This document shows positions 7,679 to 14,867 of a DNA stretch of 34,673 nucleotides, piece after piece. Below the pieces are notes generated by a model that did not search any database, had not been told where the DNA came from, and was given only the letters and a program-made list of their open reading frames with translations. The DNA is from a virus (taxonomy: Duplodnaviria > Heunggongvirae > Uroviricota > Caudoviricetes): IMG/VR virus record IMGVR_UViG_2563366915_000001. One strand, given 5' to 3'. The stretch's first letter is position 1, and every line of letters begins with the position of its first letter. Position numbers and translations under genes: made by a program.

Positions 7679-7747
7679 ATTTCCATTTCACGCTCTTTAA
7701 CAATAAGCAATCAACTTAACAGTCAATTCAAACTAAAGGAGTCAATT

Positions 7748-10548: not shown

Positions 10549-12051
10549 TTAAATTGCATCTGCAAACTCTGGGGTTTTTCGCTCAGGTATAATTGATGAG
10601 TTGCTGTTGTCACTTTTTTTATTTTCATGATTACGAATAGCCAATGACTCATTAAAGTCTTTTGCGACTGCTGTCTCAATAAATTCAATTTCTGAATCAG
10701 AGTGTTTTTTAACAGCTTCTTTGATCTCATCCAGAGTAACATAGAAAAACTCTTTTCTACGATTTACAAGATTGACTCTCTTTTTATCGAAGACATCATG
10801 TAGTTTTTTTTCTAATGATGGAGCGTCCTCCGAATAAATCATGGCATGTACATCAAAAATAAAAGGAACAGATGCATCACCGAGCTCATTTACACGGTCT
10901 TGCGGATCAAGACGTCGTGTCATGCCTATTTTATAAACATTCTCCCCAAAAGAACCTATGTTCGAAATAATATAAACATGACCTTGTTTGGTTTGTTGTG
11001 CCATGGATAATGCTCTTTGATGCTTTGATTCAGCCTGCGACAAACTCTGTTCTAGTTCGGCAATGCGATTTTCGAGGCGCTGCTTCATGTCACCAGTAAC
11101 TTTTTCCATTTCCTTTCTTGCAGCTTCAATTGCTTTTTTATAACGGCGCTCTTCTGCCTCTGCGTCTTGCATGGCCTTTTCTATTTCTCGTTGTGCACGC
11201 TCCTCCTCTCTCATTTGTGCCCTTATTTCTGCCTGTTCTTCTTTTTCTTTCTGTTTTTGCTCACGATATTCATGGGTAAGCCACAATTCCTCAAGTTTTT
11301 TATTGAGGTATTTAGTGTTTATATATATGTGATTTTGCTCGTTTAGTTTATTTATGGCCTCAAATGCCTTTGTGATGCGTTCTTCCATTTTAGTGATGTT
11401 TTTCCACGTGCAATTGCTAATTGCAGCATCACATTCATTATTAAATGCTCTAGTAGTTAGCCTGATATTTCTGTCTGTCATTTTTTTACCCTCTGCTCGA
11501 GAGCCTTCAACAGTCCATTGGGTTGTACAATATACTGCGCCAGAGTGGGTTTTATCCCGCAGCATTAATTTCTGTTCATCCCTGATGGATTTTATTTTGT
11601 TTTTAAATTGCTCTGAATCTTCAAAATTAAAATGAGGTTCGTAAAATCCTAGTTCGGCTAGCTCAACATCTTCTGAATAAATAGAAATTTGCCTTACTAG
11701 TTTATCATATATTTCTTTCTTCTCTTTATAAGTTCTTCTTAGCTCTTGGATTTGTTTATTGATACCATCCATTTTTTCAATGGTGTTTGTTAGTTCATTA
11801 TTGGCATTTTCTTTTACTTTTAGGGATTCTTCTTTTATTATGGAGCATTCTTGCTCTGTTTTCTCAATAAGCTTCTTACATTCTTCTTCTACATTAAAAT
11901 AATCTGCAAAGCGAGATTTGTATTCTTCATTTTTTTGATTGCTATCACTTAATTCTAATTGTATTTTTTTGATGCGTTTGATTGCAGCTATATAAAGAAC
12001 AAGAACAACCAATAAAAATATGATTGCAAGTAATAGAGGAGTTTGAGTCAT
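10549..12051 (-). CDS. Membrane-anchored coiled-coil protein with DUF4041-like region and C-terminal T5orf172 (GIY-YIG-like) domain, 500 aa
   Basis: N-terminal hydrophobic helix (LLLAIIFLLVVLVLYIAAI); long E/K/R/Q-rich heptad region; C-terminal GHVYIISNIGSFGENVYKIGMTRRLDPQDRVNELGDASVPFIFDVHAMIYSEDAPSLEKKLHDVFDKKRVNL...KEFFYVTLDEIKEAV fits T5orf172; antisense to the early-right operon; AT-rich. Confidence 0.8.
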   Translation of the reverse strand: MTQTPLLLAIIFLLVVLVLYIAAIKRIKKIQLELSDSNQKNEEYKSRFADYFNVEEECKKLIEKTEQECSIIKEESLKVKENANNELTNTIEKMDGINKQIQELRRTYKEKKEIYDKLVRQISIYSEDVELAELGFYEPHFNFEDSEQFKNKIKSIRDEQKLMLRDKTHSGAVYCTTQWTVEGSRAEGKKMTDRNIRLTTRAFNNECDAAISNCTWKNITKMEERITKAFEAINKLNEQNHIYINTKYLNKKLEELWLTHEYREQKQKEKEEQAEIRAQMREEERAQREIEKAMQDAEAEERRYKKAIEAARKEMEKVTGDMKQRLENRIAELEQSLSQAESKHQRALSMAQQTKQGHVYIISNIGSFGENVYKIGMTRRLDPQDRVNELGDASVPFIFDVHAMIYSEDAPSLEKKLHDVFDKKRVNLVNRRKEFFYVTLDEIKEAVKKHSDSEIEFIETAVAKDFNESLAIRNHENKKSDNSNSSIIPERKTPEFADAI

Positions 12052-12360
12052 TCGTGCTATTCCTTACGGACAATTTAAGACGTTTTGTATTAAATCCTGT
12101 TCAATGTGTATGCGGGTGATTGCTACCGCTTACAATCTTCATAATTATCAGTTAGATAGACTCGCTAGTAAATAATTTCATTTTTTGCAATATTCTTATT
12201 GAATATTTCAATTTATGAAATGAACTCTTTATCCTTTCAAGGTGAAAGGTTTCTTCTTCGGAAATATTTGCTCTCGTGTGACGTATAAAGACCTTTGATT
12301 TTCAAAAATCAGTAGGGAATAATATAGTTACTGTCGGCCTGAACACCCGGTGGTGGGGTT

Positions 12361-12450
12361 GCGCTAAACGGGGACGTTTATGCGCACACACAATCCAAAC
12401 TCTCATCTCCATTCACAGATGCAGAAATGCACCTACGATTTTTTACATTC
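12361..12450 (+). repeat. Direct repeat copy 1 (~90 bp, 7 mismatches versus copy 2 at 14295-14384)
   Basis: gcgctaaacggggacgtttatgcgcaca... aligned by eye with the ninB-proximal copy; carries a short ORF start (ATG 12380) after a GGGGA motif. Confidence 0.75.
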
Positions 12451-12863
12451 GGTGTTTTACTTCGACAGCCAGAATTGGGAGTCTCTATTCGTCTGGCGGC
12501 TAAAGGTGATATGGAAATCGTTATGTTTTGGCCTGAGGTAGTTGTAACTGTTGTAGCAGCTATGGATGTGATCATCATGGTGTCCATTTACTGGGGTTGA
12601 CGACATGATTTATCCGGCGCTATATTCTGTGCGTTGCCGCAAAATCGGCACACGGGATTGGCGTCCCGGGATACTACTCAACGCATACCGCGTTAAGCGG
12701 TTTTTTTGTGCGCTAAGCACGGCTATGCCCAAATTATGGTGGGCTGTGTGAGGGCTTCTTCGGAAGCGCCGGGTTTGAGTAGCCGGTTACGCCAACCTTA
12801 CACAGTTCACCACCAGTCGATTGGCGTCGTTGGTGGTGATGGTTAACCTGATGAGGTGATACT

Positions 12864-13472
12864 ATGACTACTCAATTAGCATTCCACAAAACGACGTTTA
12901 CCCCGATTTGCCACAATAACAGAATTTGGCTTACTGCCACTGAAGTTGGTTTAGCACTGGAATATGCGGACGATAAAGCAGTTCAGCGCATTTACTCTCG
13001 GCACTCAGATGAATTCACAGATATGATGACAAGGGTGGTCAAAGTGACCACCCCTCGTGGAATGCAGGAGTCTCGAGTATTTAGCCTTCGCGGAGCCCAT
13101 TTGATCGCCATGTTTGCTCGTACTCCTGTGGCCAAAGAATTCCGCCGCTGGGTTCTGGATATTCTCGATCGAGAAGTTCAACAATCCCCAATCACAAAAC
13201 AATTCACTGATAACGAACTTTGCACACTCGCCTGGTTATGGCGAGCAAGTGATACGATGTTAACCGCCTGCCAGAACGTTACGCCCCTTCTTCAGGTCGC
13301 AGAGCATCGCGAAGCAGGTAGATTCACTTCAATCGAACAAGAATATCCTCGGATACTCAACAGGGCGCGAGAAATCCTTGCCAGAGAAACGGCGCATGTA
13401 AAATTCCAACCGTGGCAGGATGATAAGTGGAGTCGTGTGTTACCATATTTCCGTCAGAATCTGTTGCAATAA
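12864..13472 (+). CDS. Bro-N domain antirepressor-like protein (202 aa)
   Basis: N-terminal region RIWLTATEVGLALEYADDKAVQRIYSRHSDEF...RGMQESRVFSLRGAHLIAMFARTPVAKEFRRWVLDIL fits the Bro-N/AntA pattern. Confidence 0.7.
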   Translation: MTTQLAFHKTTFTPICHNNRIWLTATEVGLALEYADDKAVQRIYSRHSDEFTDMMTRVVKVTTPRGMQESRVFSLRGAHLIAMFARTPVAKEFRRWVLDILDREVQQSPITKQFTDNELCTLAWLWRASDTMLTACQNVTPLLQVAEHREAGRFTSIEQEYPRILNRAREILARETAHVKFQPWQDDKWSRVLPYFRQNLLQ

Positions 13473-13492
13473 AGTCACTAGTTAGAAATACT

Positions 13493-13532
13493 GCCAGCAT
13501 TCTGCGATGACGGAAGTGCTGGCATTTTTTTT
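13493..13532 (+). terminator. Rho-independent terminator after the Bro-N gene
   Basis: Stem gccagca (13493-13499) / tgctggc (13517-13523), followed by an 8-T tract (13525-13532). Confidence 0.7.
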
Positions 13533-13707
13533 GGTAATGTGCGAGTCCATTTCATAAAATACGGGTACTGGAACTGGACGATATAATCTAAAAGATACCA
13601 TTATCAGTAGCATTAAAATCGCTATGTGCCGATACGGATATAAATTATATTGATTGTTCACATACCTTATTGGATATTACTGAGGGGTGTTTATATAAGG
13701 TGTAACG

Positions 13708-14217
13708 ATGATGTGGAACTTTGACAGTGCCGACTTAAGTGCAATAGCAGCAGGCATTTCTGCGTTTGGCACATTAGCCGCAGCGGGGTCGGCGCTTGCA
13801 AGTTGGTGCACGTCAAAAAAAGCGCTGCAGCTACAAAATAGAGTTTACCTTTATGAGTCTTTAAAGGCTTGCGCTGAGAGAGCCAATTCATCAGCTAAAG
13901 ATAAGCGCGGATCTGAATGGAGCGTTAATGATGCAGCGGATATCATCAGGTGCCTAGTACGGGCGATGGAGCTCATCAAGCAGGATAGCCAGCAGAAAGA
14001 AGGTAATCAGGCATTAATGTTGAAACAGTACTTTGTTAATCTGCTAATAATGGAACTGTACGAGGAAGTTCATAACGGTGATGCGGCTGATTCTGTTTTT
14101 AAAAGTACGGAACCTACACAAGTACTTGATAACTTATGGAGCAAATGGCAGGAGGCTATAGCTTTTTTTGATATTTGGAATTACCCAGTTGCGACTGAGG
14201 AAGACTTGGCAGACTAA
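13708..14217 (+). CDS. Uncharacterised 169-aa protein with hydrophobic N-terminal segment
   Basis: ORF downstream of the terminator in AT-rich DNA; N-terminal AIAAGISAFGTLAAAGSALASW suggests a TM or signal segment; no recognisable catalytic motif. Confidence 0.5.
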   Translation: MMWNFDSADLSAIAAGISAFGTLAAAGSALASWCTSKKALQLQNRVYLYESLKACAERANSSAKDKRGSEWSVNDAADIIRCLVRAMELIKQDSQQKEGNQALMLKQYFVNLLIMELYEEVHNGDAADSVFKSTEPTQVLDNLWSKWQEAIAFFDIWNYPVATEEDLAD

Positions 14218-14294
14218 TTTTCAGCACATTTGATTTCCAATAATCAACCAGCCATAATCATGCCATTGGAGCTTGAACAACTCCGGTGACTTCT

Positions 14295-14384
14295 GCGCTA
14301 AACGGGGACGTTTATGCGCACATACAATCCAAACTCTCTTCTCCCTTCACAGATGCAGAGATGCACCTGCGATTTTTTGCATCC
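14295..14384 (+). repeat. Direct repeat copy 2, immediately upstream of ninB
   Basis: See copy 1; about 92 percent identical over 90 bp. Confidence 0.75.
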
Positions 14385-14415
14385 AGCGTTTGACCTCTGC
14401 GGAGGTGAAGCGTGA
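14314..14415 (+). CDS. Small ORF (33 aa) inside repeat copy 2, YlcH-like by position; overlaps the ninB start
   Basis: ATG preceded by GGGGA; encodes [33 protein letters not shown]; DLP12 has a 33-aa ylcH in this position (recollection). Differences from copy 1 are mostly non-synonymous, so coding status is doubtful. Confidence 0.3.
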
Positions 14416-14867
14416 ACCTCCCACAAGACGGCATCAAATTGCATCGTGGTAACTTCACCGCTATCGGCCAGCAGATCCAGCCTTATCTGGAGGAAGGCAA
14501 ATGCTTTCGCATGGTGCTTAAACCGTGGCGTGAGAAACGCAGTCTTTCCCAGAATGCACTCAGCCACATGTGGTACAGCGAAATCAGTGAATACCTCATC
14601 AGCAGGGGTAAAACGTTCGCCACTCCAGCTTGGGTAAAAGATGCTCTCAAACACACATATCTCGGTTATGAAACCAAAGACCTGGTTGATGTCGTAACCG
14701 GTGAGATCACCACTATCCAGTCGTTACGCCATACCTCCGATCTTGATACCGGAGAGATGTATATCTTCCTGTGTAAGGTTGAAGCCTGGGCGGTGAATAT
14801 TGGCTGCCACCTGACTATTCCGCAGAGCTGCGAGTTCCAGCTGCTGCGCGACAAGCAGGAGGCGTAA
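14412..14867 (+). CDS. ninB: NinB-family protein (YbcN-like), GTG start
   Basis: Translation [55 protein letters not shown]... has the NinB-type RSLSQN motif and matches what I recall of DLP12 YbcN. Confidence 0.8.

Follow-up and report, generated by a model that had tools for sequence, protein, structure and literature searches.

What is the origin of a DNA segment that is found twice, in direct orientation, on either side of an antirepressor gene in a lambdoid prophage, and did it serve in the exchange of the genes that it encloses? The question is raised by the viral DNA of IMG/VR record IMGVR_UViG_2563366915_000001 (34,673 nucleotides, called hereafter the window), in which a copy of the leader of ninB, here the gene ybcN, lies about 2 kb upstream of that leader. 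This DNA is that of an Escherichia coli prophage, lambdoid and DLP12/phage-82-like. RefSeq genomes contain identical DNA, in which the annotated genes are, from left to right, those of a repressor and a cro-like protein, O, P, ren, a minus-strand gene for a DUF4041 protein, one for a P22AR-domain protein, two hypothetical genes, ybcN, ninE, ybcO, rusA, ylcG, quuD and a porin gene. The answer that we favour, with a probability of about 0.78, is that the duplicated leader fragment is a homology patch at which related prophages recombine, and that gain and loss of the cassette lying between the two copies is ordinary lambdoid mosaicism.

Exact comparison of positions 12361-12450 with 14295-14384 gave 7 mismatches out of 90 (92.2% identity), the number that the original prediction had counted by eye. 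The ungapped homology extends over 104 nt, from 12360-12463 to 14294-14397, with 89% identity. It contains a perfect core of 29 nt (12360-12388 = 14294-14322), which has two occurrences in the window and was absent from 100 of 100 shuffles, even when 3 mismatches were allowed. A gapped and weaker similarity reaches some 67 nt further upstream (12293-12359 versus 14228-14293) and spans a hairpin and promoter-like hexamers, TTGATT-17-AATAAT in copy 1 and TTGATT-17-CATAAT in copy 2. A short open reading frame (ORF) begins after a GGGGA in each copy (MRTHNPNSHLHSQMQKCTYDFLHS... in one of them), as had been noticed before, and six of the seven differences between the repeats are non-synonymous in it, where the original prediction had spoken of most. 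The claim that the repeat duplicates the ninB leader also held, copy 2 being the ylcH leader of ybcN as annotated in DLP12 of K-12. The repeat is the 5' two-thirds of this leader, so that the regulatory leader of the nin module has been duplicated in part. Its downstream copy belongs to the following elements:

14230-14258, plus strand: promoter-like element of copy 2 (sigma-70-like), TTGATT, 17 nt, CATAAT, containing the palindrome TTGATT-N6-AATCAA; the conserved nin module begins here on its left side.
14264-14288, plus strand: hairpin 1 (HP1) of copy 2, loop CUUGAACAA.
14294-14397, plus strand: repeat copy 2, made of HP2 (14294-14320), a G-free linker and HP3 (14352-14383).
14314-14415, plus strand: ylcH, an upstream ORF (uORF) of 33 codons, whose TGA overlaps the ybcN GTG at 14412.
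14386-14413, plus strand: HP4, predicted to occlude the ybcN Shine-Dalgarno sequence (GGAGG) and start codon.
14412-14867, plus strand: ybcN, recombination mediator of the NinB/Orf family, from profile matches.

HP2 of copy 2 is capped by a GGGA tetraloop and holds the ylcH ATG within its 3' arm, and the linker that follows is 31 nt long, with 13 C and no G. YbcN scored 179 bits with phrog_72 and 279 bits with PRK09741, and slightly below threshold with Pfam NinB; its assignment to the NinB/Orf family is backed by an earlier study (PMC4118853). As judged from this layout, copy 2 is the working leader of ybcN, about 185 bp long (14230-14413), and it would act on expression through translation. 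As the stop of ylcH and the start of ybcN overlap, ribosomes that translate ylcH would open HP4 and pass to ybcN by translational coupling.

Prophages without the cassette were then compared with the window. Two loci, L020 and L015, have a window-like left flank (ren, the DUF4041/PD-Lambda-1 gene, the upstream sequence and the HP1 allele), followed by a single leader and ybcN, and this single leader is fronted by the same promoter-like allele as copy 1. The L020 leader is copy-1-like until the 29-nt core and 100% copy-2-like after it, a rare AGA codon included. From the alignment, L020 and the window are related by exactly one exchange between the repeats, of 1,934 bp, with the crossover inside the perfect core. 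Among the 5,426 complete E. coli genomes of our survey, the left flank of the window was found with the filled allele in 84 and with the empty allele in 46. The same cassette was also present behind a different left flank (L021), and four-gamete incompatibility was pervasive across the block. We had considered the core as the sole crossover hotspot; this was dropped, as the four-gamete test placed recombination along the whole leader. Experiments have demonstrated that temperate phages and resident prophages exchange DNA by relaxed homologous recombination, for which short identity suffices (De Paepe et al. 2014, PMC3945230), and recombination at the repeat fits this process. The acting recombinase may be the host RecA or the phage Red/Orf.

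The leader was followed in two samples: 133 copies collected from IMG/VR by the core pattern, to which 17 genomic loci reached via YbcN were added, and an independent second sample of 112 copies, obtained with a pattern placed outside HP1 and HP2. The −35 and −10 hexamers (TTGATW and (C/G/A)ATAAT) are held 17 nt apart, with a variable spacer, in E. coli, Enterobacter, Citrobacter, Huaxiibacter, Siccibacter and Phytobacter. Homology between unrelated prophages, such as the window and K-12 DLP12, starts exactly at the leader −35, and canonical terminators lie directly upstream of it in L130 and L131, from two genera. For HP1 and HP2 together, 94% of the cells of a MAFFT alignment pair, versus 80% in shuffles and 31-52% with slid partners. 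Compensatory changes affect 12 of their 16 pairs, which was matched by none of 500 shuffles, and in the second sample we counted 8 different arm pairs for HP2 and, for HP1, 38 different stem/loop variants. HP3, short, with a GAAA loop and located inside ylcH, underwent a compensatory change in the Siccibacter copy and has an entirely different pairing sequence in Phytobacter; RNAalifold recovered the short form with the GAAA loop. The same program missed HP4, because MAFFT had misplaced a 3-nt gap. Single-sequence folds, used instead for this hairpin, predicted it in 54 of 54 sequence variants, with several different stems.

The original prediction had suggested that the repeat may be conserved at the DNA or RNA level. 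The compensatory pairs bear this out, but the block is not purely non-coding: ylcH is open, over 31-34 codons, in 238 of 240 leader copies ahead of a NinB-family gene, and in 109 of the 112 copies of the second sample its stop shares bases with the next start, as ATGA or GTGA. Under this double constraint, on the RNA and on the reading frame, the leader stays similar enough to recombine. In many lambdoid prophages nothing else at the left edge of the nin module is conserved so well, which makes the leader a homology patch.

Three details of the block deserve mention. A 30-nt stretch of ylcH (TCACAGATGCAGAAATGCACCTGCGATTTT, 14343-14372) shows zero synonymous change when the common E. coli allele is compared with the copies of Enterobacter, Citrobacter and Huaxiibacter (L126-L132); copy 2 of the window deviates within it, having AGA where the others have AAA, and the remaining peptide varies freely. 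What is constrained here could be the RNA or the motif SQMQKCTCDF. The HP1 loop, CYUGARCA (14272-14280 in the window, and in many loci), is conserved on a stem that covaries freely, and no convincing site complementary to it was found in the window. Finally, a palindrome, TTGAT-N8-ATCAA, at 14230-14247 and 12295-12312, overlaps the leader −35 and is largely kept across genera. It could be the operator of some regulator; neither a search of the window nor a reading of the immunity region revealed an operator matching it.

The leader is present in 2,886 of the 5,426 complete E. coli genomes (53%), and NinB/Orf genes of three very different types (151, 149 and 145 aa) follow the same leader. A scan of the interval 12200-14500 against the curated covariance models of Rfam 15 gave no match to the leader, even at E <= 10; the matches in this interval were C4, isrK and c4-a1b1, plus two chance matches outside the leader. 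We found no functional literature on ylcH or its leader. Two published RNAs were tried as candidates for this C/A-rich leader and rejected: the anti-sRNA AgvB maps downstream of the late promoter, and the paper on the Pas sRNA makes no mention of ninB, ybcN, ylcH, IsrK or an antirepressor. The covariation indicates that the leader is a conserved structured RNA, absent from Rfam, and it is the fresh element of this analysis.

A wider interpretation can be put forward tentatively, at somewhat less than even odds. The repeated unit may be an uncatalogued cis-regulatory RNA cassette, which would gate NinB/Orf genes across the Enterobacteriaceae and at the same time be a portable homology arm for cargo exchange. 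Its parts would be the promoter, HP1 with its conserved loop, the GNRA-capped HP2 holding the uORF start, the uORF, and the hairpin occluding the ribosome-binding site. Through such a leader, whose conservation far exceeds that of the flanking genes, defence genes, antirepressor operons and alternative NinB alleles would be exchanged. A bolder variant, by analogy with the put RNAs of phage HK022, is that HP1 and HP2 might modify RNA polymerase in cis.

The upstream copy has a different fate. It consists of the following elements, given here with the small ORF to which it is joined:

12295-12323, plus strand: promoter-like element of copy 1, TTGATT, 17 nt, AATAAT, whose −35 overlaps the palindrome TTGATTTTCAAAAATCAG.
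12330-12354, plus strand: HP1 of copy 1, ACUGUCGG / CCGGUGGU, with G-U pairs, loop CCUGAACAC.
12360-12463, plus strand: repeat copy 1, made of HP2 (12360-12386, GGGA loop) and then 28 codons of a ylcH pseudo-uORF (ATG at 12380).
12511-12600, plus strand: small hydrophobic ORF, called hereafter hyd, 29 aa, MEIVMFWPEVVVTVVAAMDVIIMVSIYWG; its stop lies within the −35 of the isrK promoter.

Copy 1 has neither HP4 nor the ybcN ribosome-binding site. In all of the 13 two-copy loci that we collected, it leads to the same downstream DNA, the hydrophobic ORF and an isrK-C4-antirepressor (ant) operon, through one shared junction signature, TTCGGTGTTT. Sharing this junction throughout, it is the decayed 5' end of the isrK operon and not a generic cargo bracket. 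The reading frame of this type of copy is decaying: phage IdasGreatGrand has ATA in place of ATG, two loci have a TAG at codon 15 and one has a frameshift, so that 4 of 13 frames are disrupted, versus 2 of 240 for true leaders (Fisher p = 6e-5). Cys-to-Tyr changes occur in most loci of the copy-1 type, and the O157:H7 equivalent is a partial pseudogene in the PGAP annotation. Copy 1 is a truncated, decaying leader remnant fused to the hydrophobic ORF and the cassette, and the repeat pair is one ancestral leader-operon fusion that spread, not a universal cargo bracket.

Might copy 1 nevertheless be a co-opted working leader, which gives hyd and the isrK-C4-antirepressor genes an extra transcription start or a stabilising 5' end, so that selection keeps the duplication? 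We consider this unlikely, although it is the alternative that survives best. TTGATT-17-AATAAT, HP1 and HP2 are all intact in the window. The hyd segment, from copy 1 to the isrK promoter, accompanies isrK-C4 in approximately 299 of 308 E. coli genomes (those with the antirepressor RNAs among the 5,426), hyd is always preceded by a leader copy in the IMG/VR sample, and its ORF has an indel of 6 nt among relatives, which is in frame. Against this, what lies upstream of copy 1 in relatives is in many cases unrelated or hexamer-free (L002, L097, L018), L002, which is phage IdasGreatGrand, has a damaged HP2 and start codon, and the hyd ORF is truncated by a TAG in the L097 type (4 loci). Moreover, five loci have the same antirepressor operon directly after ren, with no leader copy, and copy 1 diverges as fast as its neighbours or faster. 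As to hyd itself, phrog_4612 (function unassigned) models a 57-aa form starting from 12427, and one possibility is that its product is a membrane peptide or a toxin.

Under the homology-patch reading, the sequence of events would be as follows. A truncated leader (promoter, HP1, HP2 and 28 codons) that had lost HP4 would have been fused once to hyd and the isrK-C4-uORF-antirepressor operon. From a donor with the order pseudo-leader, antirepressor operon, moron, leader, ybcN, the cassette could then enter any single-leader phage by two crossovers, one in the leader and one downstream. It could be removed again by recombination between the two direct repeats.

What does the cassette carry? The elements found between hyd and copy 2 are:

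12597-12626, plus strand: isrK sigma-70 promoter, TTGACG, 18 nt, TATATT, 10 of 12 matches.
12635-12707, plus strand: isrK small RNA and its terminator (12687-12701 plus a T-run), RF01394, 58.7 bits versus a gathering threshold of 50.
12706-12846, plus strand: uORF overlapping C4, ending 18 nt before ant, of putative regulatory role.
12732-12817, plus strand: C4 antisense RNA, RF01695, full length, 74.8 bits versus a gathering threshold of 45.
12864-13472, plus strand: antirepressor, 202 aa, Pfam Bro-N 40.5 bits and P22_AR_C 63.7 bits.
13492-13532, plus strand: intrinsic terminator of the antirepressor operon, a stem followed by U8, −18.6 kcal/mol, z = −3.5.
13708-14217, plus strand: orf169, 169 aa, phrog_1779 (function unassigned), hydrophobic N-terminus; occupies the variable moron slot.

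Profile searches and folding confirmed the Bro-N antirepressor, the terminator and the 169-aa ORF that had been placed between the copies. The antirepressor had also been credited with a promoter of its own; the promoter exists, at 12597-12626, but it drives isrK and then C4, not the antirepressor gene directly. The isrK region scored 39.6 bits with RF03163 (the C4 a1/b1 target sites), below the gathering threshold of 46.7. For orf169, Pfam, NCBIfam and PADLOC gave no match, and PHROGs only a family of unknown function.

The layout of the cargo matches that of the c4-icd-ant operon of immI in phages P1 and P7. From its parts, the window operon is of the P1 immI / Gifsy-1 isrK type, and by analogy its antirepressor would be controlled by RNA and would act in induction. 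The uORF at 12706-12846 is, by the same analogy, the positional equivalent of orf45 in Gifsy-1 and of icd in P1. The window has the parts of the Gifsy-1 isrK-orf45-anrP-isrJ locus in the same order (promoter, IsrK and terminator, C4-type RNA and uORF, antirepressor, terminator); no match to isrJ was found for the window cassette. The locations differ, the Gifsy-1 locus lying downstream of a Q-like antiterminator gene, whereas the window operon occupies the slot between ren and ninB, after the leader remnant and the small hydrophobic ORF. In Gifsy-1, IsrK activates translation of the uORF and the antirepressor, and promotes prophage induction (Hershko-Shalev et al. 2016, PMC4825925). The ylcH leader resembles orf45-anrP in that translation of a short uORF would be expected to open a structure hiding the next start, as suggested by the predicted fold and the overlap.

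The cargo had been described as one module. It is two things, an isrK-C4-antirepressor operon of known type and a separately exchangeable moron slot, both lying between the copies. The slot, beside copy 2, harboured at least five unrelated cargo types in the loci compared, each seen with and without the pseudo-leader. Besides orf169, these contents include a 240-aa minus-strand gene, a 118-aa gene, and a theta-subunit-like gene with two others. In E. coli O157:H7 Z903 the slot (L140 4843-5639) holds a HEPN-domain protein, which matches the PADLOC candidate PDC-M28A weakly and overlaps a 133-aa partner; the two are probably a toxin-antitoxin or defence pair. The repeat had further been proposed as a possible modular junction, to be checked by looking for different cargo between the two copies in relatives. 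This applies to copy 2, beside which the slot contents vary, but not to copy 1, which is followed by the same operon in all 13 loci.

Two observations concern the DNA around these genes. Phage IdasGreatGrand has about 450 bp between its antirepressor gene and a 118-aa cargo gene (L002 7120-7577) in which our scan gave no ORF of at least 60 codons; its record annotates two ORFs of about 40 codons each there, and the stretch may encode a structured RNA. On the other side of copy 1, the window protein at 10549-12051 (minus strand, 500 aa, DUF4041 and T5orf172/MUG113) gave a full-length match to the PD-Lambda-1 anti-phage defence model, with 658 bits. RefSeq names it 'SNIPE associated domain-containing protein', and an IS5 splits the gene in some genomes.

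Self-contained genes with their own promoter and terminator, as in the window cargo, are a feature of moron loci, a concept that reportedly goes back to Juhala et al. in 2000. The locus is also like the mosaic junctions of lambdoid phages explained by relaxed recombination (PMC3945230), in that a short conserved stretch lies between unrelated modules and empty and filled alleles switch inside this stretch. It is unlike the usual mosaic junctions in two ways: the homology patch is an identified functional element (promoter, structured leader and uORF), and it is doubled in direct orientation, which also permits loss of the cassette within one genome. Copy 2 is orthologous to ylcH-ybcN of K-12 DLP12 and to orf33-orf151 of phage 82, with an identical overlap of the ylcH stop and the ybcN start; both K-12 and phage 82 have a single leader copy. 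The DLP12 slot from ren to the leader in K-12 MG1655 (L258 1316-5252) is filled with emrE, ylcJ, ybcK, ybcL and ybcM, where the window has PD-Lambda-1 and the antirepressor cassette.

The comparison with lambda bears on a second alternative, which we hold to be somewhat less probable than a co-opted copy 1: the conserved block could serve above all to stop transcription, as lambda tR2 does ahead of ninB, and the repeat would then be a duplicated terminator or attenuator. Transcription would stop either at an intrinsic terminator, formed by a weak hairpin and T-run in ylcH, or through Rho, which would load on the G-free linker in the absence of ylcH translation. Lambda has between ren and ninB a 26-codon ORF, MTIYITELITGLLVIAGLFIWGRGKS (L141 368-448; lambda 40567-40647), whose TGA overlaps the ninB ATG (ATGA). 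This ORF shares map position and uORF/ninB layout with ylcH, and it spans a strong intrinsic terminator, the tR2 hairpin; its sequence is unrelated, its product is hydrophobic, and it has no counterpart of HP1 or HP2. The composition of the linker (31 nt, 13 C, no G) and the sequestration of the uORF start by HP2 would suit a stop signal. As to the intrinsic mode, the original prediction had seen a gcag...ctgc hairpin followed by a T-run in copy 2, and a scan did flag a terminator-like site at 14354-14371, but a weak one: the stem has just 5 pairs around an 8-nt loop, and many natural variants have a broken T-run (ATTCTTT, ATATTTT, ATATATT). A G-free tract of about 31 nt is also short for a Rho loading site, and a stop signal leaves the conserved promoter hexamers and HP1 unexplained.

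That the repeats are the ends of a mobile cassette with a dedicated enzyme, as att-like sites or a transposon target duplication, is very improbable: direct repeats do surround a discrete insert of 1.9 kb, which some prophages have and others, similar in the rest, lack, but the ORF list and profile searches revealed no recombinase or transposase gene between the copies, the repeats are 104 nt long and only 89% identical, a repeat comparison of the window revealed no terminal inverted repeats at their ends, thousands of prophages have the repeat once, as a functional leader, and the sequence left of copy 1 varies from locus to locus.

Several points weigh against the homology patch as we have presented it. 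The ybcN-rusA operon of DLP12 is reported to need promoter-creating insertions for its expression (PMC4118853), so that the leader promoter, if real, is weak, repressed or attenuated; both this promoter and the coupling of ylcH to ybcN are read from sequence and predicted structure. The amino-acid constraint on YlcH is weak, codon positions varying equally, with a ratio of non-synonymous to synonymous changes of 2.3 versus 3.8 expected. Recombination signals are leader-wide, the proportion of incompatible site pairs being 58% for left-right pairs and 51% for left-left pairs. With the same operon beside copy 1 in every two-copy locus, the repeat pair does not act as a general cargo bracket, and since copy 1 of the window keeps its promoter-like hexamers, HP1 and HP2 intact, it may not be a mere scar. 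As to direction, the module had been proposed to have been inserted by recombination at the repeat; the empty and filled alleles support gain or loss, and insertion cannot be told from deletion by them.

Elsewhere in the window, a boxA-like sequence, CGCTCTTTAACAA, lies directly 3' of the cro-like gene (7691-7703), consistent with an N-type nutR site.

Taken as a whole, the locus is a well-documented instance of known lambdoid mosaicism around a known antirepressor operon, and the leader RNA is its fresh part. It ties a mosaic boundary to a concrete element, the left edge of the nin module being a functional leader under RNA and reading-frame constraint. Upstream of it lies a hot slot, filled by accessory genes such as PD-Lambda-1, HEPN pairs, emrE in K-12 and the antirepressor operon, which makes the leader a useful anchor for mining prophage cargo. 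The leader itself is a candidate new RNA family and a candidate regulator of the phage Orf/RusA recombination genes. Lastly, the direct repeats predict a measurable gain and loss of the antirepressor operon, of the kind that triggers prophage induction in Salmonella.

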